Source: a virus (Duplodnaviria > Caudoviricetes). From it: a stretch of DNA of 64,000 bases. A program made the position numbers and the translations under genes. The number at the start of each line of letters is the position of its first letter. Position 1 is the stretch's first letter. The stretch is from IMG/VR virus record IMGVR_UViG_3300006467_000454, positions 44,321 to 108,320 of that record. One strand, 5' to 3'. The notes below the pieces were generated by a model, which had not been told where the DNA came from, searched no databases, and saw nothing but the letters and a program-made list of their open reading frames with translations. Below, in pieces: positions 15,521-27,811 of the stretch.

Positions 15521-16015
15521 ATGGCAAACAAAAGTAGGCACATTCCTATTTCGGAATATTATTCTATTTTGCAATTAGAATATATATCGTTTAGGCTTCG
15601 TGAAGCTATTTATCAAAAGAAGTACTCAGAGAAGTACAAACCTTATTGTGAAGGTAAAAAAGAAAAGATTGAAAGTATTGCATTGCAAAATTGTTTACCT
15701 TCAATTTTTAATTCGGAAACCTCAAGAGAAAAATATTTGGGGAAGTTTTTCAATGAATTTGGATTGCCCAATTTTACCTATAAGAATGAAGATTCTAAGG
15801 AGAAAATGGGTAAGTGGGATAAGTATTATTATTTTTCTCCTGGGACTTCCGTTAAATTTAAGGTAGAAGATAGCAAGGATATCCAAATCGGGACTATCGT
15901 TTCTAATTTGATTGAGGAAGAATCAGTTGTTGTAAAAACAATTGAAAAAGAAGAATTCACGTTGGCATATAGCAAAGTTGCCCGTATGCTCGTGGAAAGT
16001 TTGTTTAATTTTTAA
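15521..16015 (+). CDS. Hypothetical protein
   Basis: ORF tightly packed between primase and dUTPase. Confidence 0.55.
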   Translation: MANKSRHIPISEYYSILQLEYISFRLREAIYQKKYSEKYKPYCEGKKEKIESIALQNCLPSIFNSETSREKYLGKFFNEFGLPNFTYKNEDSKEKMGKWDKYYYFSPGTSVKFKVEDSKDIQIGTIVSNLIEEESVVVKTIEKEEFTLAYSKVARMLVESLFNF

Positions 16016-16025
16016 TTTTTGGAAA

Positions 16026-16541
16026 ATGTTAAATGTAAAAATCAAGCCTGAAAGAATCAATTTTCAGAAACCAGTAAAAGGAAGTAAAGATGCAGCGTGT
16101 TGGGATGTTTATGCTTCCAAAATTGAAGAAAAGCCAGATGGGTTGGTGATTGTTTATTTAGGGTTCAGTACTGAAATCCCTGTTGGCTATAAGGGTGTTA
16201 TCGTAGCCCGTTCCAATATCACTAAATATGGCTGGTGTATTCCTAATGCTCCTGGACAAATTGATCCAGATTTCCGCAATGAGTGGCAAGTTAGATTCCG
16301 CAGATTGCCTATGTTCCGTGAAAAAGAATTAGTGGGGAATCCACGTTGTAAAAACGGGGAAGGGGAATTGTATTCCAAAACTCAAGATTTCTTAGAGATG
16401 CATTCGTTCCCTTATAAGCAAGGTGAAAGGGTTGCCCAAATCTACTTTGAAAAAGAAGAAGAAGTTGTTTGGCAAGAAGTTAAAGAAACCAATGATACCG
16501 AGCGTGGCTTGGGTGGCTTTGAAAGCACTGGGAGATCATAA
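16026..16541 (+). CDS. dut: Trimeric dUTPase
   Basis: All five motifs present: AACWDV, ARSN, GQIDPDFRNE, GERVAQ, RGLGGFESTG; ATG at 16026. Confidence 0.9.
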   Translation: MLNVKIKPERINFQKPVKGSKDAACWDVYASKIEEKPDGLVIVYLGFSTEIPVGYKGVIVARSNITKYGWCIPNAPGQIDPDFRNEWQVRFRRLPMFREKELVGNPRCKNGEGELYSKTQDFLEMHSFPYKQGERVAQIYFEKEEEVVWQEVKETNDTERGLGGFESTGRS

Positions 16542-16669: not shown

Positions 16670-17644
16670 ATGGGCGTAAGCGTAAAAGATGTATTGAAAA
16701 GAAAATACAAGAAACTGAAAGATGATGAGATCATCGATATGTTATCAACTGAGTTGAAAGAAGAAGAACGTGAAGTTCTTTTGGAACTTGCTAAGAAAAG
16801 GAAAATCATTAATGATATTCCGGAATCTACTGAGGAAGTTGAAGAAATTCCTTATGAAAAACCTGACGCTAAATTGGTGAAAAAGGCTGTGAAAATTTTT
16901 GATGATTTTGCCGAAAATCAGGAAACTGATCTTTACGGTAAGGCAGCGGAGATCATTAAAGATCGTGAAATTTCTGAACTTTCTAAGCATGAAGTTGAAG
17001 CGATTATTGCTTTGAAACCTGCTACAAAACGTAAAAAGGCTCCAGCAAAGGCAAAAACTGAAAAACCTGAAAAAGCGGAGAAAAGTGAAAAGGCTGCTAA
17101 ATCCGGAAAGGGAAAAGGCAAGGAGAAAGAAAAGGTTGAAGAGCCTAAAGCTGAAGAAAAAGTAGAAAAGCCTGAAAAAACGGAAAAGAAAGAAAAAGCT
17201 GTTTCGTTTAAAGCCTTTAAGGATCTTGCCATGAAAGCGGAAAACGTGAACGATTTTTATGAAGCCGTTAAGGAAATGAAAGATGTTCCTAAGAAAACTG
17301 TCGATAAGTTTTATAAGAAGTACGGTCAGGATGGTAAATTGGCGGAGTTTGAAGCCCTTAAAGTTTTCTATGATGAAACTATGGAAAAGAAAGAAAAGGC
17401 TAAAACAAGCAGCAAGCGTAAGCCATTTGTGGAGCTTGATGAATCTGCTGAGGTTAAAGGTTTGAAACTTGGTTCAAAAGTTTCTTTCAAAGCTCACCAC
17501 CTTTCTAAAAAAGCAGGTGAACAAATTAAGGGTAAAGTTACCCGTATCATCATTGCTAATCGTGATAGCAAGGAGTACATCAAAATTGAAACCAAAAATG
17601 ATGGTGAATTCCACAAGAGAGCGAATTCTGTAGAAATATTATAA
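16670..17644 (+). CDS. Lys/Glu-rich hypothetical protein, possibly nucleic-acid binding
   Basis: Central EKPEKAEK low-complexity tract; small beta-rich C-terminal domain. Confidence 0.55.
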   Translation: MGVSVKDVLKRKYKKLKDDEIIDMLSTELKEEEREVLLELAKKRKIINDIPESTEEVEEIPYEKPDAKLVKKAVKIFDDFAENQETDLYGKAAEIIKDREISELSKHEVEAIIALKPATKRKKAPAKAKTEKPEKAEKSEKAAKSGKGKGKEKEKVEEPKAEEKVEKPEKTEKKEKAVSFKAFKDLAMKAENVNDFYEAVKEMKDVPKKTVDKFYKKYGQDGKLAEFEALKVFYDETMEKKEKAKTSSKRKPFVELDESAEVKGLKLGSKVSFKAHHLSKKAGEQIKGKVTRIIIANRDSKEYIKIETKNDGEFHKRANSVEIL

Positions 17645-17653
17645 AAAGTTTCT

Positions 17654-18715
17654 ATGTATAATAATCGTATTGTCATTGATTTAGATGACACAATATCCGT
17701 TACATTTGATAGGGACTGGGAAAATTCAACCCCAGTCCTTCCTGTCATTGGAAAAATTAATCAACTGTATGATTTAGGTTGGGAGATTTGCATTGTTACT
17801 GCAAGGGGTCAATTAAGTTGTAAAGGAGATTCAAAAAAAGCCGATGATAAATACCGTACTCAAATTGAAACTTGGCTCAAGAAACACGGAGTCAAATACA
17901 CTTCTTTATCATTTGAGAAAGTATTAGCCACATATTATGTTGATGATAAATCATTGTCACCTGAGGATTTCACAAAATTGAATGTTGTGGGATTACAGGG
18001 GGGATTGTCTGGCGCCAAAATTGAAAAGGTGGGGGATAAGGTTTACAAGACACATAAAAACTCTCTTCAGGCTGTTAAATGGTATTCCATAATTGAAAAC
18101 TATGATATTCGTATTCCTAAAATACATAGTATTATTGGGGATACTATTTGCATGGAATATATAGAGGATTGCCCAATAAAGCAACCCCATTTCCCTAGCC
18201 TTACAAAAGCCATTGATATTTTTTCTGGGATTAAGGTGAAAGGGGTTCCGTTTGATAATTATATTGAGCGTATCCATAAGCATGCGGAATATCATGGTGA
18301 GTTTTCTGAGATAGTTGACGAATTGGTTTTACATTCAAAATTTTATGAGGAGTTTTCTTCATTTTGTCATGGGGATTTTTCTATTGATAACATTTTAATC
18401 GATAGGAAAGGTTCCCATTATTTGATTGACCCAATTTATGAAGAAGATTCATGGAGTTCATGGCTTTTGGATGTTTCTAAATTGGCTCATTCTTATAGAA
18501 GGTATGATAAAGTTGATACCCTTTGGAATATTTATGAGCATTATAGGCATAAGGTAGACTGGAATCATCTTAAACTATTAGAAATAACTCAATGGATCAG
18601 GGTGCTAAAATACCTTAAAGACCAGAGGGAGATAAACAGATTTAGAAACACAATAGACGTTATGATGTATGAATATTTTGGTAGAAATAGAAAACCTAAA
18701 ACTAAATGGTTCTAA
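17654..18715 (+). CDS. HAD phosphatase (capsule-biosynthesis type) fused to an APH/choline-kinase-like phosphotransferase
   Basis: HAD motifs IDLDDT, VTARG, K, YVDDK; kinase motifs GGLSGA..K, CHGDFSIDNIL, LIDP, DVSKL. Confidence 0.82.
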   Translation: MYNNRIVIDLDDTISVTFDRDWENSTPVLPVIGKINQLYDLGWEICIVTARGQLSCKGDSKKADDKYRTQIETWLKKHGVKYTSLSFEKVLATYYVDDKSLSPEDFTKLNVVGLQGGLSGAKIEKVGDKVYKTHKNSLQAVKWYSIIENYDIRIPKIHSIIGDTICMEYIEDCPIKQPHFPSLTKAIDIFSGIKVKGVPFDNYIERIHKHAEYHGEFSEIVDELVLHSKFYEEFSSFCHGDFSIDNILIDRKGSHYLIDPIYEEDSWSSWLLDVSKLAHSYRRYDKVDTLWNIYEHYRHKVDWNHLKLLEITQWIRVLKYLKDQREINRFRNTIDVMMYEYFGRNRKPKTKWF

Positions 18716-19106
18716 AATAGGCTTCACTGCAAGCTCTTTTGATTTGATGCATCCTGGACATATCGCAATGTTATCAGAAGCAAAATCAAAATGTGATTAC
18801 TTGATAGTGGGGTTGTTGACAGACCCAACAATTTCTAGGTACGGTTCAAAAAATAAGCCTGTCCAAACTACTTTTGAAAGGTTCATTCAGGCTCAAGCTT
18901 TAGGCTGTGTTGATTTCATAATCCCATTTGATACCGAAGAAGATTTGGAGCAAATGTTGAAATTGATAATGCCTGACATTCGGTTCGTTGGTGAGGAGTA
19001 TAAAGATAAAGATCACACGGGTAAAAATATCGATGGGATTGAAATCTTTTACAATAAGCGAAAGCATAATTATAGTTCTTCAGAATTAAGGGGGAGGTTA
19101 AAATGA
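18669..19106 (+). CDS. HxGH nucleotidyltransferase (TagD / HldE-C cytidylyltransferase family)
   Basis: SSFDLMHPGH, KP......ER and C-terminal RKHNYSSSELR. Confidence 0.88.
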   Translation: MNILVEIENLKLNGSKIGFTASSFDLMHPGHIAMLSEAKSKCDYLIVGLLTDPTISRYGSKNKPVQTTFERFIQAQALGCVDFIIPFDTEEDLEQMLKLIMPDIRFVGEEYKDKDHTGKNIDGIEIFYNKRKHNYSSSELRGRLK

Positions 19107-21616
19107 AAAGATATAAAATAGCATATATGGTGCATCGTGGGGATACCAATGGAGGATTCCCACAGCACACGGAAACTATTATCCATGCCTTAAAGGAATT
19201 AGGGCATCAGGTTAAATTCTTCTATCTGGATTATTGCGTTGGGGATAAAGCTTCTTTTATGGCTAAGAAAGTAGAACTTTTCCAGAATGGAGAGCTGATG
19301 CGTCAGGGTCATGAATTGCAAATCACCAAAGGGATAGGGACAGGGGAGTTTTACGATTCTGAAAAGGGTTGGTTTTGTCCAGTAACTCCATATAAAAATA
19401 TGGATGATAAAAAGAAGCTGAAAGCAGAGTTGGAAGAATACGACGCTGTATTTTGGCATACTCCATTTTGGTTCAAACAAAAGCCTACATTAATGGATAC
19501 GGATTGGCCAATGTTATTGGATTTGGAAAACCCAGTAAATATTGGAATGGTTCACGATGCTAATTTAAGGGCAAATGGGGCGTGGCAGTATTTTATAAGC
19601 AAATACTTTGACAAAATAATTACAGTCCATTTTGCTTCCTACAATTCAGCCTCAGTGCTACCTGTAAAACGTACCTTGATATTCAATCCTCAGGATTTAT
19701 CAAAAGTGGATGAATCCCATACTAATTTCAAGAATATCAAGAAAACGGGGAAGATATTCTCACTCCAGAATTGGAAGGGTAGCAAGCATGTTGATGATTT
19801 GATTCGTGCAGTACCTTACTTTTCAAAGAAGGTGAAAACAGTCGTTGCAGGGGATGGGATTGAAGCCCGTTATATGTTTGGCTCCAAGGAAAAGATGAAA
19901 CCTCAGTATTATTGTACTAAGGCTAAGGATCCGGATTTGCCTGAAAAATTAGAGGGTAAATTGACAATTGCTGAAAGGGCTCAGGAAACTGGACGATTTG
20001 AAAAATTGTTTTGGCTTGATTCAGATAATCGTGATAAACAAATGTCTGAAGCTGCTTTCTTTATTGATACAGCTTGGTATAGTGTGAATAAAGAATTGGG
20101 AAGCCACTTTTCTAGAACGTTAATTGAAGCCATGATGGCAGGTTGTGTACCTATCGCCAGAAACTTTGGATTAAGTGATAATGCGGAAGGGTTGGGTGAG
20201 TTATTTAAATCCAATATAAATTACATAATGATCCCCCATGATGCAACCCCTGCTGAATTCGCTGAAATTGTTAACAATGCGTTCAAAATGGACAAGAAAG
20301 AGTACAAGCGTATTGTAAAAAACAATTATAAACTCTTGGAAAATTTTTGTATGCTTAATGTAGCAAAGCAATATATCAAGTTAATAGAAGATAAAAAGAC
20401 TGGATTCTTTGATAAATATGAAGTTGGTGAACCGACTGAGGAGTTTATCAAAAAGGCTGAATTGCAATGGTTCGGTACTGGAGATAAAAGGACTTTTAAC
20501 TTCAAAAAAGAAGAAAGCATGGTTGAAGAAACCCCAGAGGATAAAAAGCCTAAAAAAGAAAAGGCTGAAAAACCTAAAAATGAAGAGGGCAAAAAGGAAA
20601 AGAAGTCAAAGTCCCCAAAACCAAAAGGGAAATGTGAGTTCACCCCTAATGAGAATTTCAAATATTATTTCTATTGGATTAGTGAGCGAATGAAAATATT
20701 CTGGGAACGGAATAAGGGTGAGGAAGCTCCTTGGACTGAGGATAAGATTTTGAATGATCATAAATTTACCAACGTTTATCGCTGCTTGGATCGTACAAGC
20801 CAATATTTGATAAAGCATATTATCAACGATACGAAGAAACGTTCCAAAGAAGAATTGTTTTGGAGAATATTATTATTCAAACATTTCAATTCTCCTGATA
20901 CTTGGATAGCCTTAGAAAAGAAATTCGGGGATATTACCTTAGAAACTAAGGTGAAGAAAATTATTAAGTTCCTTGAAAAGTACAAGAATGAAGGGAATAC
21001 CATTTACAGTAATGCTTATATGATGACAGCTTCCTTTATGAAGAAGCCAGAATTCATGAAAAAGTATAAAATGGGGGATTCAAGGAGTAAGCATGAAGCC
21101 TATCTTAAAATGCTTTGGAATGTCTTTATTGAGGAAGGGCTTGCAAAGAAAATTATTAAAAGTAAATCTTTGGAAGAGGTACAAGGTAAATTTAAGGAGG
21201 TTATTACTATTGGTGATTTCTTAGCGATGCAATATACCATTGATATCAATTACAGTAAGTTGATTGATTTTAGTGAAAACGATTTTATCGTTGCAGGTCC
21301 TGGGGCTATACGTGGAATTGACCGTACATTCGATATTGAGAGTGCTCCAGATTATCAAAAGATCATCAAGTGGGTTCACAAGAACTTTGATAAGCTGGCT
21401 AACGAATACGGGTATAAATTTAAGCCCCTCCCAAAACGTGCCTTGACTTTAATTGATTTGCAGAATTGCTTCTGTGAAACGGATAAATATTTGAGAGGGC
21501 GTGGTATCGATAATCCTAAAAAGGAAGTCGGTGGAAAACGCATCAAACAAGTATTCACTCAAAACACAGATAAAATTGAATATGTACTTCCCGAGAAGTG
21601 GGAAATAAAATTGTAA
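19103..21616 (+). CDS. GT-B glycosyltransferase fused to an aGPT-Pplase1 / 5-hmdU-DNA-kinase-helical domain
   Basis: N-part: GG.PQH, K..KHVDDLIRA, FSRTLIEAMMAGCVPI (GT-B). K-rich linker about 20510-20630. C-part: WISER...PWT.D.IL..HKFTNVYR.LDR, AGPGA.RG, QNCFCETDKY. Confidence 0.8.
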   Translation: MKRYKIAYMVHRGDTNGGFPQHTETIIHALKELGHQVKFFYLDYCVGDKASFMAKKVELFQNGELMRQGHELQITKGIGTGEFYDSEKGWFCPVTPYKNMDDKKKLKAELEEYDAVFWHTPFWFKQKPTLMDTDWPMLLDLENPVNIGMVHDANLRANGAWQYFISKYFDKIITVHFASYNSASVLPVKRTLIFNPQDLSKVDESHTNFKNIKKTGKIFSLQNWKGSKHVDDLIRAVPYFSKKVKTVVAGDGIEARYMFGSKEKMKPQYYCTKAKDPDLPEKLEGKLTIAERAQETGRFEKLFWLDSDNRDKQMSEAAFFIDTAWYSVNKELGSHFSRTLIEAMMAGCVPIARNFGLSDNAEGLGELFKSNINYIMIPHDATPAEFAEIVNNAFKMDKKEYKRIVKNNYKLLENFCMLNVAKQYIKLIEDKKTGFFDKYEVGEPTEEFIKKAELQWFGTGDKRTFNFKKEESMVEETPEDKKPKKEKAEKPKNEEGKKEKKSKSPKPKGKCEFTPNENFKYYFYWISERMKIFWERNKGEEAPWTEDKILNDHKFTNVYRCLDRTSQYLIKHIINDTKKRSKEELFWRILLFKHFNSPDTWIALEKKFGDITLETKVKKIIKFLEKYKNEGNTIYSNAYMMTASFMKKPEFMKKYKMGDSRSKHEAYLKMLWNVFIEEGLAKKIIKSKSLEEVQGKFKEVITIGDFLAMQYTIDINYSKLIDFSENDFIVAGPGAIRGIDRTFDIESAPDYQKIIKWVHKNFDKLANEYGYKFKPLPKRALTLIDLQNCFCETDKYLRGRGIDNPKKEVGGKRIKQVFTQNTDKIEYVLPEKWEIKL

Positions 21617-21620
21617 TTAT

Positions 21621-22646
21621 ATGTATATTTTTGAAAACTTGAATTCGGCTTTAGTTGGGATGTGTTCTAACTTACTGGAGTATGGGGAAACAAGGGAAAC
21701 AAGGGGGCATCATTGCGTTGAGATACCTTATCCCGTTTTAATCTGTATTAACAACCCGACTGACAGGTATGTGACTATCCCTGAAAGAAAATGGAATAAG
21801 GTCTTGCCGTTTGCGGAAAGCCTTTGGTTGGCGTTGGGGTTAAATGATTTGGATGAATTGCCAGGAAATTATGTGAAGAATTTGTATAATTTTTCAGATA
21901 ATGGTAGAACGTGGCGTGCAGGTTATGGTCCGAGAATGAGATACTTTAGTGGGCATGGTTCTGATTATGATATTAGTAAACGTGATGAGGCTAAAGTTTA
22001 CTCTGGGGATATTAACCATACTGACCAGTTGAAGTTTGTTATTGATACTTTAAATAGGGATATCAATAGCCGACAAGCTATCATTACAATCCATGACCCT
22101 GCAAAGGATGACTTTGATCGTGATGGTGGGCTAAAGGTTACAAAAGACCAACCTTGCACACGTAGCATCCATTTCCAAGTAAATACCAAGGGGGAATTGG
22201 ATTGCATCGTTGACATCCGTTCTAACGATGTTTTGTGGGGATTCTCAGCGGTTAACGTCATTAACTTTGCTATCATGCAAGAATACGTTGCTAATATTAT
22301 GGGGCTGCCTATTGGTAAATATTATCATTTTGCCCATAATTTCCATTATTATGAAGATTTTGAAAGTAGAGTAGTTGAGCTGAGAGATGTTGGGTTTTCT
22401 GACCCTAATTACCATAAAGAAAGTGTTAAGTTCCAATATAAGGATCCGATTGGGGACCTTGAGAACTTTGATTTCCTATTGGATTTATTGTTTGATTATG
22501 AGAAATCACTTCGTGAGGGATATTCGTTGCCTTGTGATTTAGGTAATGATATGTTCAATGACTGGGCTAAAGTGTTCTATAACTATTGGACTAAGCAGCC
22601 AGTGTATTTTGAAAATCCACATTTAAATAAATTGTTTAATATTTAA
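21621..22646 (+). CDS. Thymidylate-synthase-family enzyme, probable dUMP hydroxymethylase
   Basis: YGPR, SRQA, KDQPCT (catalytic Cys), RSNDVLWGFSAVN (Asn at the specificity position = uracil substrate), H.YE; context of aGPT-Pplase1 domain and dNMP kinase. Confidence 0.78.
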   Translation: MYIFENLNSALVGMCSNLLEYGETRETRGHHCVEIPYPVLICINNPTDRYVTIPERKWNKVLPFAESLWLALGLNDLDELPGNYVKNLYNFSDNGRTWRAGYGPRMRYFSGHGSDYDISKRDEAKVYSGDINHTDQLKFVIDTLNRDINSRQAIITIHDPAKDDFDRDGGLKVTKDQPCTRSIHFQVNTKGELDCIVDIRSNDVLWGFSAVNVINFAIMQEYVANIMGLPIGKYYHFAHNFHYYEDFESRVVELRDVGFSDPNYHKESVKFQYKDPIGDLENFDFLLDLLFDYEKSLREGYSLPCDLGNDMFNDWAKVFYNYWTKQPVYFENPHLNKLFNI

Positions 22647-22653
22647 TTCGTAA

Positions 22654-23325
22654 ATGGCATTAAATGACTATCGATATAAGTATATTTATGCAACATTTAA
22701 TTTAGTGAATGGTAAATTTTATGTCGGTAGCCATATGTCCAATAAAGATCCTAATTCTGATAAATACCTTGGCTCTGGTGTTAGGATTAAATACGCCATA
22801 AGGAAATATGGTAGGGTTAATTTCAAAAGGGAAATTATTGAATTTTACCACGGAGAAGATATTGAAGAATTTAGGGATTTAGAAACTTATTGGATAAATT
22901 CTTTAGAAGCCGTAACATTAGGGTATAATCTAAAAGAATCAGCTAATTCCCCTTATACTGAAGGTAAAAGTGTTGGGGATAAAATAGCAAAAACATTGAG
23001 GGGTGTCCCAAAATCAGAATCCCATAAACGGAACCTTAGTAAAAGTAAACAAGGTTCAAAGCCATGGAATTTAGGGGTCCCATGTAGGGAAGAAGTGAAA
23101 AAGAAGATACAAGCCACTTCTAAGAAAAGGGTCATCCCTAGGGAACATATTGAGAAAATGCATAAAGCTGTTACAGGTGTTCCGAAGAGTAAAAGGTTCA
23201 AGAAAATTATATCTGATTCTTGGAAGAATAGGGAGGAAATAAAATGCCCTCATTGTGGGTTAAAAAGTAAAAGTTTAGGTAACATGAATCGTTACCATTT
23301 TAATAATTGTAAATCAAAATCGTAA
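22654..23325 (+). mobile_element. Free-standing GIY-YIG homing endonuclease with NUMOD3-like repeats
   Basis: YIY...NLVNGKFYVG, YLGSG, KYG..NF.RE, E..WI, GYN; repeated G.PKSE.HK..LS modules. Confidence 0.85.
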
Positions 23326-23329
23326 AATT

Positions 23330-23845
23330 ATGCTAAGCATTGGTTATTATCGTAAAATGAAAAGGGTTAAAAGGCTCGGGCTATCATTCATCCATAGGGA
23401 GTATTCGCTATTGGAGCACCAATATATGGTAGGTATGTTGTTTAAGTATTTTGCATCAAAGGAAAATGTCCCTTATGATATTCACGTTTGGGATTTAGTT
23501 CTTCACCACGATGCATTGGAAGTCGAAACAACAGATTTAATTTCAACCGTGAAAAAACTTTCCAAGAAAACTCAAGAAGCTTGGGAAGTCATTGAGGAGG
23601 AAGTTATCAACAAACATTTCCAGTTAGAAAAATACAGTGATAAAAGATTTAAGGAAGGCATGACACCCCTCCAGCATAAGCTGTTTAAAGCTTGTGATTA
23701 TCTTGACTTGTGGATTTTTATCAAGGAAGAAGTAGCCATCGGAAACAAATCAAAAGATATTTTGGAAATCCTAGGGCGGTGTGACGAAATGATAGGCACG
23801 GATTTCCTACATATCCGTAAATTCATGGAGGGATTTAAATGCTAA
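23330..23845 (+). CDS. HD-domain nucleotide phosphohydrolase (YfbR-like)
   Basis: SLLEH, LHHDALE, KACDYLD. Confidence 0.8.
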   Translation: MLSIGYYRKMKRVKRLGLSFIHREYSLLEHQYMVGMLFKYFASKENVPYDIHVWDLVLHHDALEVETTDLISTVKKLSKKTQEAWEVIEEEVINKHFQLEKYSDKRFKEGMTPLQHKLFKACDYLDLWIFIKEEVAIGNKSKDILEILGRCDEMIGTDFLHIRKFMEGFKC

Positions 23846-24468
23846 ATGTATGGGTATATTTAGGAGTAAATGGGTCTGGAAAAGACTTTCAGGCTAAATT
23901 GAAATCTGAGGAGTTAAAGGTTTTACCTTTTGATTTTAGTGATGGAGTTCGGGAATACACGTTTGCTTTCCTGGGTTGGACTCCCCCCAATAAAGATGAT
24001 TATGAGGCTTGGAAATCAGGTCAATCAACTATGTTTATGCCAGAGGGGCTGAGTGCCTATTCCATAAAAATGCGCAAGGGGCGTGAGTTCTTAGATAATG
24101 TTGGCAAAAAGATGAGGGATTTTGACCCTGATTTTTGGGCAAAACATACCGTAAGTAAAGCCACTGAATATTATCAACAGGGGGTGGAGAATATTATCTT
24201 TTCTTCTTGTAGGTATATAAATGAAGCAAAAGCAATTTTAGATTTCGTTTATAGTGCAGGTGGGGATGATGCAAATGTTAATTTCATATTCTGTGATTAC
24301 CAATCAACGAAATATGATGACACTTACAGGGAATATCAAGAATTAGCCTTAATCCTTAGAGATATGGGGGCTGGTGACCTTGAGAAAGTTAACGAAAAAA
24401 TTTATTATTTAATTGCCAATTATGAAAAAGTTGCTCAAGTTTTTAGAAGCGAATCGGATAGAGCATAA
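23839..24468 (+). CDS. Deoxynucleoside monophosphate kinase
   Basis: GVNGSGKD P-loop, FSD.VRE, RE.L..VG..MR..DPDFW and CRY.NE, as in phage dNMP kinases. Confidence 0.75.
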   Translation: MLNVWVYLGVNGSGKDFQAKLKSEELKVLPFDFSDGVREYTFAFLGWTPPNKDDYEAWKSGQSTMFMPEGLSAYSIKMRKGREFLDNVGKKMRDFDPDFWAKHTVSKATEYYQQGVENIIFSSCRYINEAKAILDFVYSAGGDDANVNFIFCDYQSTKYDDTYREYQELALILRDMGAGDLEKVNEKIYYLIANYEKVAQVFRSESDRA

Positions 24469-27400
24469 ACAGCATAACAAGAAGATGGTGATTATCGGTG
24501 GGGAGAAATTTGAACTGATAAAACCAGACGATGATGGGAAGATTTTCACCCCTTCTTTTACACTGATGGCTGATTCAACTAAGGCTGAAAATTATGTGTT
24601 TTCATTTGGTGGCAATTACTACTTTACACCCGAAGGCACGGAAGATGACCCCAAGCTTAACAACCTACGCTATTACGGGAAATGTTCTGAAAAACAAAAG
24701 AATAAATCCTTCTTAGGTGTTAGGGGTGGATTTGAGATCCTTAACGGCTCAGGGCAATATAAAGATTGGGTTAAGAAAGCTAAATTTTTAGGTCTTGAAA
24801 CTTTAGGTATTTGTGAGAAAAATACTTTGGCAGGTGCCTTGAAGTTCCAGAGTGCCTGTAAAAGTGGTGGAATTGAATCTATTATTGGTGAAACTGTTAC
24901 TGTATTCCGGAAATCAGAAGATTTAAGGTATGATTTGAAATTATACGTTAAAAATGAAAAGGGGTATCGGAATCTCTTACTTATAAATAAAAAAATCAAT
25001 GTTGATGAATTGTCATTTATAAAGGAAGAGGATCTATTCAAAATGTTGGATGGGTTATACATTGTCCTTGACCCAAAATCATTGCCATATGAAAAGGTAT
25101 TCCCAATTGATCTTGATAATGATGTGTTTTACCAAATTGACCCTGTAATATGGGAAGACAATGAAGTTGATAAAACTTATTTGGAAAACCTAAAGCAATA
25201 TGTGCTTGAAAAAAGATTTAAGCCAATTGCAATTTGGGATGCTTTCTATTTAGAAAAGGATCATAATCACATCAAACAAATCCTAAACGGGATAGCGAAG
25301 AAATTCGAATATATTTCAAAGGATCAATGGTTCAAGACTTGGGGGGAATATGAAAGCGGTTGCTCAGATATTTTCTCTGAAGAGCGTATTGGGATACTGA
25401 AGAAAGCCAAGAAGAATTTGGAATTAGTTGCGAGCGTTTGCAAGAATTTTAATATACCTACTGGGGAACGTCATTTGCCTAAATACAAAATGACCAAAAA
25501 AGAGGCTAAAAAGTATAAAACAAATAAGGATCTTTTCTGGGGATTGGTTGAAGATGGGTTGAAGCGTAAAACCCCAAAAGGTAAAAAGAAAGAATACCTA
25601 AAGCGTGTTGAAATAGAATGGGATGTTATTGAATATGGGGATGTAATGGATTATTTCTTAATTCTATATGATATCATCAAGTGGTGCCGCAAAAAGAATA
25701 TACTCGTGGGTATTGGTCGTGGTTCTGCTGGAGGTTCTTTAGTATCTTATCTATTGGATATTACTCAGCTTGACCCAATTGAATACGGGTTACTTTTTGA
25801 GAGATTTTTGAATAAAGGTCGTATTGAAAAGTCACTACCCGATATTGATGTGGATTTCCCTGCTAAGAAACGTGGGCTGATTAAAGCCTATATTGAGAAA
25901 CGATACGGGCATGATCAGGTTTGTTCAGTAGGCACTTACACCGCATTACAGTTGAGGGCTGCCTTAAAGGATATTGCGAGGCAGTATTCAATCCCGTTTG
26001 ATGAAACAAATAGGGTTACTGCTTATCTTGAAGGTTGCAAATCACTGGAAGATATTTTCCGGAAATCAGCTTCGGATAAATTTGTTTACACTTTTGTTAG
26101 CAAATATCCGTATGTGATAAACGATATCCCATTAGTTTTAGGGCAACCAAAAGCTAAATCAATCCACGCTTGTGCCATGATGGTATTCCCGAAAGAGAAA
26201 ACCATGTACGAGTGGGCTCCTGTTAGGGAACAGGACGGACAAATAGTAAGTGAGTGGGAAGGTAATGAGTTGGATGAAGCAGGATTCCTTAAAGAGGATA
26301 TTTTGGGGGTTAAACAGTTAGATAAATATGAGGATATTTTGGAATCCATCAAAAAGGTGGAAGGCAAAGAAATTGACTTGTATTCATTAAAGCTTAATCA
26401 CGATAAATGCTATAAGTATTTCCAGAAGGGGTGGAATGGTGATGTATTCCACTTTGGTAGTCGGGGATTGACAGGGTACTGTAAGGAATTACTCCCTGAA
26501 GATATTAATGATTTGATTGCTGGAATCTCCCTTTATCGTCCTGGAGCGATGGAGAATAACTTCCATAACGAATATGTCCTACGTAAAAATGGGGATCGTG
26601 AGGTAGAATATTTTGTCGGTTCTGAGGAAATCCTTAAAGATACTTATGGGGTATTTGTTTATCAGGAGCAGATTATGAAGCTTTGTCAGGTTTTAGGTGG
26701 ATTATCCCTTGTAGAAGCGGATGATGTACGTAAAGCGATGGTAAAGAAAAAGTATGAAGCACTCCAGCAGTATAAAGTTAGATTTATCCCACATTATGTG
26801 AAAGAATTTGGGGTATCTAAACAATATGCCGAAGGAGTTTGGGAGGCTATTGATAAAGCTGCAACTTATCTGTTCAATAAATCCCATGCATCTGCTTATT
26901 CCATTACAGGATACTGGGGGCAATACCTCAAAGTATTTTACCCTGTACACTATTGGAAAACAGCTATTAATTATGCTGATGAAGATCAATTCCCTCATTA
27001 CATTAATGAAGTCCATAAAACAGGTGATATAGAAATCAAGCCACCTGATATAAATGAATCCGGAGAAGGGGTAACTGCTGATTTCAAAGCAAATAAAATT
27101 TACTGGTCAATAGGTGGTATCAAAAATGTTGGGGGAACAGCCCTTCATCAAATAATTGAAGACCGAAAAAAGAGCGGTGAATACTTTGATTTGAAGGAAT
27201 TCTATTCACGCCATAAGTTTACTGGGACTAAGGTAAACAAGCGTACAATCGAATGCTTAATTTTATCTGGTGCTTTTGATCAGGTTTGTGATATTGATTT
27301 ACCTAAAAGGAGATTTAAATTAATTGAAGAATTTAGGGAGATTGGTAAGATCAAAATTGATGATGAGAAAGATCTTTTCTCTGCCAATAAATCTATGTTA

Positions 27401-27811
27401 AAAGATAACCAATGGTGGGTATTCCAACAGAAGTTGTTATCCGGAATTGCTTATTTTGATTATAAGGATCTTTGTGGTAGGTTAGAAGTGGAAGGGTATA
27501 AATTCATGAACCCAGAAAAGTTCATGAGGGAAAACTCAGCTGGCAAAGATGCCAGAATTGGGGGGTACATTTCCGAAATTAAGCTACGTAAGAATCAGAA
27601 AGGGCAATGGGCTTCCATAGTTCTGGAAAGTAATTACGAATTCATTAGGGTTCAGATTTGGCCAGAGCAATTCTCTAGGTTAGAGGGTAGGATTCACTCT
27701 AAATCTAAGGCTGTTATTGTTTTAAATGGCAAAATTAAGTTTGATGAAAAGTATTCTAAGGAAAATAATCTACAAACCACCGAAGATACTGAATTCTTAG
27801 TTTTAGAATAG
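24422..27811 (+). CDS. dnaE: DNA polymerase III alpha subunit
   Basis: GRGSAGGSLV.YLL.IT, LFERFLN, PDIDVDF, K.DILG, YRPG, VYQEQIM, FNKSH, PPDIN.S; C-terminal OB fold. Confidence 0.95.
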   Translation: MKKLLKFLEANRIEHKQHNKKMVIIGGEKFELIKPDDDGKIFTPSFTLMADSTKAENYVFSFGGNYYFTPEGTEDDPKLNNLRYYGKCSEKQKNKSFLGVRGGFEILNGSGQYKDWVKKAKFLGLETLGICEKNTLAGALKFQSACKSGGIESIIGETVTVFRKSEDLRYDLKLYVKNEKGYRNLLLINKKINVDELSFIKEEDLFKMLDGLYIVLDPKSLPYEKVFPIDLDNDVFYQIDPVIWEDNEVDKTYLENLKQYVLEKRFKPIAIWDAFYLEKDHNHIKQILNGIAKKFEYISKDQWFKTWGEYESGCSDIFSEERIGILKKAKKNLELVASVCKNFNIPTGERHLPKYKMTKKEAKKYKTNKDLFWGLVEDGLKRKTPKGKKKEYLKRVEIEWDVIEYGDVMDYFLILYDIIKWCRKKNILVGIGRGSAGGSLVSYLLDITQLDPIEYGLLFERFLNKGRIEKSLPDIDVDFPAKKRGLIKAYIEKRYGHDQVCSVGTYTALQLRAALKDIARQYSIPFDETNRVTAYLEGCKSLEDIFRKSASDKFVYTFVSKYPYVINDIPLVLGQPKAKSIHACAMMVFPKEKTMYEWAPVREQDGQIVSEWEGNELDEAGFLKEDILGVKQLDKYEDILESIKKVEGKEIDLYSLKLNHDKCYKYFQKGWNGDVFHFGSRGLTGYCKELLPEDINDLIAGISLYRPGAMENNFHNEYVLRKNGDREVEYFVGSEEILKDTYGVFVYQEQIMKLCQVLGGLSLVEADDVRKAMVKKKYEALQQYKVRFIPHYVKEFGVSKQYAEGVWEAIDKAATYLFNKSHASAYSITGYWGQYLKVFYPVHYWKTAINYADEDQFPHYINEVHKTGDIEIKPPDINESGEGVTADFKANKIYWSIGGIKNVGGTALHQIIEDRKKSGEYFDLKEFYSRHKFTGTKVNKRTIECLILSGAFDQVCDIDLPKRRFKLIEEFREIGKIKIDDEKDLFSANKSMLKDNQWWVFQQKLLSGIAYFDYKDLCGRLEVEGYKFMNPEKFMRENSAGKDARIGGYISEIKLRKNQKGQWASIVLESNYEFIRVQIWPEQFSRLEGRIHSKSKAVIVLNGKIKFDEKYSKENNLQTTEDTEFLVLE

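Follow-up and report, generated by a model that had tools for sequence, protein, structure and literature searches.

A phage glycosyltransferase fused to a PF18723 helical domain within a predicted thymine-hypermodification cluster

The stretch of DNA analysed here (the window, 64,000 nucleotides) is the last 64 kb of IMGVR_UViG_3300006467_000454, a 108,320-bp IMG/VR phage record with direct terminal repeats that is rated 100% complete by CheckV. One of its open reading frames (ORFs) joins a GT-B glycosyltransferase (GT) to a helical domain of the family PF18723. This fusion is genuine and so far unique. In sister phages the GT and helical genes are kept apart, and in some of them a kinase replaces the GT, so the phage probably sugar-coats modified thymines. 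The interpretation preferred here, with moderate confidence, is a thymine-hypermodification pathway in which the GT would make glycosylated 5-hydroxymethyluracil (glycosyl-5hmU) and the helical domain would work on the same base.

The fusion protein and its two halves

The ORF, P0001, lies on the + strand (19103..21616) and runs from an ATG at 19103 to a stop ending at 21616. It encodes 837 amino acids (aa) and has no internal stops. Three parts can be distinguished, all on the same strand: a GT4-like GT-B domain (aa 1-470, 19103..20512), a linker rich in Lys, Glu and Pro (aa 471-512, 20513..20638), and a PF18723 domain, also called HMUDK_hel or aGPT-Pplase clade 1, formerly aGPT-Pplase1 (aa 513-837, 20639..21613). 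An initial annotation of the sequence had read this frame as about 470 aa of GT-B, a Lys/Pro-rich linker at about 20510-20630 and an apparently intact aGPT-Pplase1 domain. That description holds in each part, with the addition that the linker is Glu-rich too. The motifs it quoted are all present in the translation, KHVDDLIRA (aa 228-236) and SRTLIEAMMAG (aa 337-347) in the first half and FTNVYR (aa 555-560), GPGA (aa 732-735) and CETDKY (aa 791-796) in the second.

Both halves match a Pfam family. Glycos_transf_1 is found at aa 211-410 with an E value of 3e-7, its 30.5 bits passing the cut-off of 26.4 marginally. The match to PF18723 at aa 518-798 has an E value of 1e-85 and a score of 288 bits against a gathering cut-off of 25, and it covers positions 3-273 of the 281 in the profile, as expected of a full-length family member. 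The halves also align end to end with stand-alone proteins of a relative, aa 5-470 with a 466-aa GT (57% identity) and aa 513-837 with a 333-aa helical protein (46% identity). In AlphaFold models both are complete and confidently folded, with pLDDT (predicted local distance difference test) values of 96.1 for the GT and 93.9 for the helical domain. The linker between them has no counterpart in the stand-alone relatives. Its 42 residues include 15 Lys, 10 Glu and 5 Pro, with an SPKPK stretch, a composition that may allow contact with DNA.

The GT model has the two-Rossmann architecture of the GT-B fold. Its Foldseek matches include HepE, BshA, PimA and MshA, at E values of 1e-13 to 1e-12 and a probability of 1.00. 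These are retaining GT4-type GT-B enzymes. Structures of T4 alpha-glucosyltransferase with DNA (1y6f and 1y6g, a duplex containing hydroxymethyluracil included) are matched at an E value of 1e-11. The 21 closest GT homologues all share G17, G18, K225, K228 and E342 with the fusion; as GT4 enzymes go, the Gly-Gly loop at G17/G18, the Lys at the start of the C-domain and E342 would be donor-site residues. In the E-x7-E region the first Glu is replaced by Ser334.

The helical model gives nothing in Foldseek at E <= 0.001. With VIA-align its best match is PaMx11 gp46 (8z2n), a protein of the related clade 2 (Z 11.6, root-mean-square deviation 3.8 A over 227 residues). The top 41 rows, with Z from 11.6 to 4.7, consist of PaMx11 gp46 followed by 40 rows of helix-hairpin-helix proteins, QNG1 and about 35 DNA glycosylases among them. 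The model thus supports a helix-hairpin-helix DNA-glycosylase-like fold, which the initial annotation had stated for the family.

Residues of the helical domain are strongly conserved. All 14 that are invariant across 22 diverse PF18723 members are kept in the fusion: R529, F555, N557, R560, D563, N596, F706, D714, G734, G738, C791, E792, K795 and Y796. In 80 homologues, with identities down to 25%, the motif Cys-Glu-x-x-Lys-Tyr has its Cys in 79 and its Glu and Lys in all 80. The codons of the Cys791-Glu792 pair lie at 21473..21478 (+). In an hhalign comparison, weak at E 0.095, Cys791 is aligned with Cys247 of M6 gp51, a clade-2 enzyme. In PaMx11 gp46, a homologue of M6 gp51, Cys247 serves as the nucleophile in catalysis and attacks C6 (PMC11472151). 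In clade-2 reactions, glycine, serine or polyamines take the place of the phosphate on 5-phosphomethyl-dU (PMC8989533, PMC13458397). An assignment of activity to clade 1, which includes M6 gp55, was not found in the literature searched.

The sole exception among the 80 homologues is a helical protein at L016:10744-12048 (L numbers denote the loci compared; this one is from IMGVR_UViG_3300033146_002574). It reads CFYETDKY, with Tyr for Cys. This variant may reflect decay of the copy or an error, or it may hint that a helical protein next to a GT can do without the Cys.

The junction of the two halves deserves attention, since a run of six A residues lies beside it (A6, 20504..20509, +). With a hypothetical A7 only nine further codons, ending in KKRRKHG, would precede the stop of the GT, and an ATG at 20519 could start a helical gene. 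In this explanation the true sequence is A7, and the fusion is a sequencing artefact of a stand-alone GT and a separate helical gene. The A6 falls exactly at the junction with an in-frame ATG 10 nt on, all relatives have two separate genes, and the fusion is a singleton, as an artefact would be. Against it stand a Logan contig (L007, run SRR5579849) and the linker itself. The contig was separately assembled, possibly from shared reads, and matches the IMG/VR record at every one of 3,152 nt spanning the junction (100% identity), and the linker shows no stop in its 42 codons, whose third-position GC content is like the local one. An artefact, the outcome that the initial annotation had named as fatal to its reading, is therefore improbable. 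Exact-pattern scans for the junction in metagenome and viral contigs, allowing A5 to A7, gave no second record.

The architecture is rare. When 1.84 billion representative proteins were scanned exhaustively with phmmer for the fusion protein, 3,506 matched; among the best 150 of these, only the query's own cluster spans both halves, and the others are restricted to aa 1-470 or aa 510-837. A word-indexed search of 5.8 billion clusters agrees with this result. Among 50,697 phage records, 464 match, none of them beyond the C-terminal part, and megablast of the fusion ORF against the same records found no match. A sequence search of the PDB with the whole protein gave chance matches only. Other fusions of PF18723 are more common. 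A thymidylate-kinase-like domain is joined to it in 33 of the 57 near-length matches, and radical SAM and MazG plus MazG_C domains are further partners.

Exchange of kinase and glycosyltransferase beside the helical gene

For the 80 top-ranked IMG/VR loci that encode a relative of the fusion's helical domain, neighbours within 10 kb were scored. A thymidylate-synthase-like (TS-like) gene is present in 52 of them, HMUD2 ('5-hmdU DNA kinase 2') in 27, a TAGT-type glycosyltransferase in 11, a GT-B of the fusion type in seven and the HMUD1 kinase in four. No locus has HMUD2 and GT-B together (0/80), and in none is the helical ORF fused to a GT (0/80). The earlier statement that the helical family usually occurs with a 5hmU DNA kinase is borne out by the HMUD2 and HMUD1 counts and by the 33 kinase-like fusions. 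Such an association is the usual genomic context of PF18723 and not a sequence criterion for membership, and it is absent here.

The closest relatives of the helical domain (41-52% identity) belong to syntenic sister phages. Their gene order is dUTPase, a 240-aa protein, HMUD2, helical protein, TS-like, HD and dNK. The slot filled by HMUD2 in the sisters is filled here by a HAD/APH gene, a nucleotidyltransferase and the GT. In other phages the order TAGT, helical protein, TS-like is found, with TAGT in the same slot. TAGT is a second, unrelated GT family paired with PF18723. In a tree of helical proteins (FastTree, midpoint root, topology only) members with different partners are intermixed, and the query is placed among those of the HMUD2 type.

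Whole genomes show the same exclusion. Five genomes of the HMUD2 type, 97-100% complete, have neither a fusion-type GT nor a clade-2 transferase, and five of the GT type, like the query genome, are without HMUD2; positive controls worked in both cases. In the complete query genome there is no match to HMUDK_HMUD1, HMUD2 or the thymidylate-kinase-like family (PF18748, PF18747, PF02223; control positive), or to the clade-2 family PF18724 (ADDT) at E values up to 1 (M6 control positive). BLASTP of the M6 kinase gp54 and the clade-2 gp51 against all ORFs of the genome found nothing, and the only ORF with a classical Walker A motif is RecA. A hidden Markov model built from the kinase halves of kinase-helical fusions matched RecA weakly and nothing else; it also missed M6 gp54 and is therefore insensitive. 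Since the query genome has no known kinase, the GT stands in the position that a kinase takes in other phages.

The GT has its own relatives. They are stand-alone proteins of about 466 aa with 33-64% identity, and their gene order is variable. In 12 of the 16 contigs with a homologue of the fusion GT, a PF18723 gene lies inside the fetched flanks, and most of these 12 also carry HAD/APH, nucleotidyltransferase and TS-like genes. Some have one gene between the GT and helical genes, either a 169-aa protein of unknown function or a Dam-type methylase. L016 has the GT and helical genes directly adjacent, in different frames, and in L024 the helical gene is 5 kb upstream. L015 and the short L025 are further exceptions to the pairing, besides two others that are taken up below. 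Such neighbourhoods, conserved in diverged phages, indicate functional coupling of the GT and the helical protein, and homologous GTs do co-occur with 5hmU genes, as the initial annotation required.

Several observations concern the other partners. A conserved protein of 210-240 aa without a family match is encoded just upstream of HMUD2 (L027:8526-9248, L042:8616-9248, L050:7768-8481). Clade-2 enzymes are missing from the complete genomes of these phages, which leaves this protein and the helical one as candidates for the step after phosphorylation. At L107:1556-3466, Bacillus phage SBSphiC (LT960610.1) encodes a 636-aa fusion of HMUDK_HMUD1 and HMUDK_hel, followed by a TS-like gene. No match to PF18724 was found in its whole 144.6-kb genome, and the clade-1 domain is therefore the only transferase-like candidate in this SP10-like phage. 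TAGT-family (GT-A) genes lie directly upstream of helical and TS-like genes at L008:5477-7993 and L063:9105-10945; in L008 a Methyltransf_21 gene stands between these genes, and a family-A polymerase fused to UDG comes after.

The gene cluster and its predicted pathway

The terminase of the phage is closest to those of Bacteroides phages and of a human faecal phage contig, and the phage is a gut phage with a probable host in the Bacteroidota. All genes described below are on the + strand.

From the gene content, the pathway would start before replication. A dUTPase/dCTP-deaminase-like enzyme of 199 aa (15942..16541) would supply dUMP. It matches Pfam dUTPase at E 1e-11 and NCBIfam dut at E 9e-19, the latter under its cut-off, and relatives have a DCD/dUTPase at the same place. 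A TS-like enzyme of 341 aa (21621..22646, Pfam E 2e-20) would then make 5-hydroxymethyl-dUMP (5hmdUMP). A dNMP-kinase-like protein of 209 aa (23839..24468) is the presumed kinase that would phosphorylate 5hmdUMP; it matches PHROG 139 at E 4e-13 and has no Pfam match, and its position is conserved in relatives. An HD-domain 5'-deoxynucleotidase of the YfbR type (23330..23845, Pfam E 3e-15), homologous to M6 gp59, would remove dT nucleotides. Finally, a replicase of the DNA polymerase III alpha type (24413..27811) would build 5hmU-DNA. Known phages use such a gene set to put 5hmU in place of T ahead of replication (PMC8989533).

The TS-like protein is the predicted dUMP hydroxymethylase. Its nearest phage homologues come from the 5hmU phages SP8, SPO1-like, ViI-like and M6-like. 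Cys179 is invariant, and an Asn aligns with the Asn of M6 gp58 and of the SP8 enzyme; T4 gp42, a dCMP hydroxymethylase, has an Asp one column before it. The structural equivalence of these positions is taken from the alignment. 5-Hydroxymethylcytosine (5hmC) was considered as the modified base and rejected, since the Asn pattern and the nearest relatives point to a dUMP hydroxymethylase.

Two genes in front of the fusion would provide the sugar donor. A 353-aa protein (17654..18715) consists of a HAD-type phosphatase in its N-terminal part and an APH-like kinase in its C-terminal part, presumed to process a sugar phosphate. It matches the capsule biosynthesis phosphatase TIGR01689 at aa 4-110 (NCBIfam, E 4e-16) and, weakly, APH/RIO1 at aa 212-259, and the gene is kept beside the GT in relatives. 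The second gene encodes a nucleotidyltransferase of 145 aa (18669..19106), the presumed maker of a nucleoside diphosphate (NDP) sugar. It has matches to Pfam CTP_transf_like (E 5e-12), PHROG 7878 (E 2e-34) and, best in NCBIfam, the heptose 1-phosphate adenylyltransferase domain (E 9e-24, under its cut-off). By analogy to a tested cassette, the two proteins would make an NDP-sugar, possibly of heptose. After replication, the GT domain would add this sugar to the 5-hydroxymethyl group of 5hmU in DNA, and the tethered PF18723 domain would engage the same flipped-out base.

The tested cassette was found in phages and consists of HAD/APH, a cytidylyltransferase and a GT-B; it yields mono- and di-heptosyl-5hmC in E. 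coli only when the three genes are all present (bioRxiv 10.1101/2023.12.21.572611). The same report associates GT-B matches mostly with thymidylate-synthase homologues and does not mention the helical family. The APH-like domain was also considered as a DNA kinase and rejected: sugar attachment by the published cassette depends on it, and that cassette has no helical protein.

Two further genes lie in the cluster. A 324-aa protein without assigned function (16670..17644) is unique to this phage at its position. Searches of Pfam, PHROG and NCBIfam gave nothing for it, the related loci encode no homologue, and in Atlas it is found with unnamed viral clusters only, at scores <= 0.77. It may be an extra enzyme of the sugar pathway. 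A GIY-YIG/NUMOD3 homing endonuclease (22654..23325) lies between the TS-like and HD genes. Such endonucleases occur elsewhere in the same cluster of relatives (L009, L050), and in some relatives the PolIII alpha gene is split (L005, L017).

Known systems and competing explanations

An experimental precedent is the tested cassette described above, the phage 'contig 53' heptosyl-5hmC system, which resembles the phage studied here in its three-gene architecture. It differs in that its 5hmC is produced by a methyltransferase and TET and no helical protein is involved, whereas here the base, predicted to be 5hmU, would come from the TS-like enzyme before replication, and the GT shares a polypeptide with PF18723. 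Fusions of the SP10 gp186 type, in which HMUDK_HMUD1 or a thymidylate-kinase-like domain precedes PF18723, share with the present protein a C-terminal helical domain, an N-terminal enzyme that derivatises the 5hmU hydroxyl and a gene beside a TS-like hydroxymethylase, as in SBSphiC. Here, in contrast, the N-terminal position is taken by a GT-B with a presumed NDP-sugar supply of its own, and 5hmU DNA kinases of known type are absent from the genome.

The clade-2 proteins of PF18724, the amino-acid:DNA transferases (M6 gp51, ViI gp247, PaMx11 gp46), provide the best structural match, have a Cys at the aligned position and likewise act in 5hmU pathways. However, they form a separate Pfam family without a significant sequence match, and they require 5-phosphomethyl-dU made by a kinase. 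The alpha- and beta-glucosyltransferases of T4 and the GT of kinetoplastid base J (JGT) transfer a sugar onto a 5-hydroxymethylpyrimidine in duplex DNA, as is proposed here. Base J is glucosyl-5hmU, and JGT is a GT-A enzyme. These enzymes are single-domain proteins that use host UDP-glucose, and none of them is known to be joined to, or encoded beside, a PF18723 protein.

What the helical domain contributes is less certain than the action of the GT. It is paired with, or fused to, either enzyme that derivatises the hydroxyl, which argues for physical cooperation. Its invariant polar site, together with the absence of a clade-2 enzyme from HMUD2-type and SP10-like genomes, argues for catalysis. 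On balance, a second chemical step by this domain comes close to an even chance, and a role limited to presenting the base to the GT is a tentative possibility. A stable glycosyl-5hmU is regarded as the fairly probable end product, because the conserved residues are unchanged across partners and heptosyl-5hmC offers a stable precedent, two points that speak against an action of the helical domain on what its partner has made. The initial annotation had offered two mechanisms, substitution followed by glycosylation, or base flipping for the GT. The former is weakened, since in a genome without a known 5hmU DNA kinase and a clade-2 enzyme nothing known would prepare 5hmU for substitution. It had also called the fusion the best evidence that the GT acts on DNA. 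That ranking goes too far: a 40%-identical GT homologue adjoins a Tet_JBP dioxygenase (L014), and the T4 alpha-glucosyltransferase fold and the heptosylation precedent are available as well.

Several points weigh against the proposed pathway. Its modified base, sugar and acceptor are predictions throughout. The likeness to the tested 'contig 53' cassette is one of gene architecture, and the NCBIfam matches of the nucleotidyltransferase and the HAD/APH protein lie under curated cut-offs. For the helical domain, a Z of 11.6 falls in the range known for unrelated helical proteins, and the hhalign match to clade 2 is weak. The fusion is seen in one phage only, beside an A6 where one added A splits the ORF. 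L021 has the GT cassette and a TS-like gene without a helical gene nearby, and in L014 the GT is accompanied by Tet_JBP alone; the helical protein is therefore not required by every member of the GT family. The in vitro reaction of M6 runs just as well when the clade-1 protein gp55 is left out, and the SP10 kinase does not need its helical domain for activity (PMC8989533).

These in vitro results are what would be expected if PF18723 were a non-catalytic module that reads DNA or flips bases and thereby targets or speeds its partner, whether kinase or GT, since it is dispensable for both the kinase and the clade-2 reactions (PMC8989533). The interleaving of partner types across the helical tree with unchanged conserved residues fits such a module, as does L016, the sole relative in which a GT gene abuts the helical gene and the one with Tyr for Cys. 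However, catalytic sites typically show the kind of conservation seen here, with Cys-Glu-x-x-Lys-Tyr kept in 79-80 of 80 homologues along with Arg, Asn and Asp residues that do not vary, and the Cys aligns with the clade-2 nucleophile, so a purely non-catalytic module is unlikely. Another explanation reverses the role of the sugar. The GT would act as the kinase does in other phages and place a leaving group, here a sugar in lieu of phosphate, on the 5-hydroxymethyl oxygen. Cys791 of PF18723 would attack C6, expel the sugar and install another nucleophile, leaving the final base unglycosylated. In favour of this relay, the kinase and the GT share the slot just upstream of the helical gene, exclude each other, and are both found as N-terminal fusion partners of the helical domain, which would suit channeling from activation to substitution. 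The Cys-Glu pair is kept, and in HMUD2-type and SP10-like genomes the helical protein is the only transferase-like candidate, clade 2 being absent. On the other hand, a glycoside is, by general chemical knowledge, a far poorer leaving group than a phosphate, and spending three donor genes on the activation of a base would be costly. Moreover, the tested cassette with this architecture makes heptosyl-5hmC as a stable product, with no helical protein taking part (bioRxiv 10.1101/2023.12.21.572611), and L021 has the cassette with no helical gene nearby. The relay is thus a doubtful explanation. Its generalisation, by which PF18723 would be the second-step enzyme of 5hmU hypermodification, fed by interchangeable modules that depend on ATP (kinase) or on an NDP-sugar (GT), is just as much a long shot.

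The least probable alternative, and a very remote one, is that the GT modifies something other than DNA, such as a host envelope glycan, teichoic acid or a protein, and that its place in the cluster is incidental. Its nearest solved folds are indeed small-molecule and lipid GT4 enzymes, and the JGI label of its homologues reads 'involved in cell wall biosynthesis'. Against this, the gene sits between replication genes and the hydroxymethylase in every relative and is fused here to a family of DNA-base enzymes, a homologue lies beside Tet_JBP, and the published cassette of such a type acts on DNA.

Clade-1 proteins are found in hundreds of phages, in at least 529 IMG/VR loci and in 464 GenBank phage records, and published reconstitutions work without them (PMC8989533). 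The fusion and the module swap together tie PF18723 to whichever enzyme derivatises the 5hmU hydroxyl and not to phosphorylation as such. Hypotheses on clade 1 are narrowed in this way, and one polypeptide holds both predicted activities. Were the relay true, the phage would make a thymine derivative of a kind not yet described, and the activation of a base in DNA by glycosylation would be a new principle. On the preferred interpretation, a sugar-bearing thymine, possibly heptosyl-5hmU, is predicted in gut phages of Bacteroidota. To our knowledge, glycosylated 5hmU has so far been known from kinetoplastid base J, and no phage example was found in the literature searched. Such a base would be relevant to restriction evasion, to sequencing bias in the gut virome and to enzymes for DNA labelling.

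A separate observation concerns short palindromes in the whole genome. Of its 81 CCGG sites, 80 are TCCGGA, a hexamer expected about 11 times from base composition. Likewise, 18 of 24 GGCC sites are TGGCCA, CGCG is absent, and the common forms of CCWGG always have a 5' T on at least one strand. This pattern is not seen in relatives. Restriction sites made of G and C only seem to be tolerated only if they are flanked by T, which is consistent with a bulky T modification that shields its neighbours. Alternatively, TCCGGA may itself be a functional motif.

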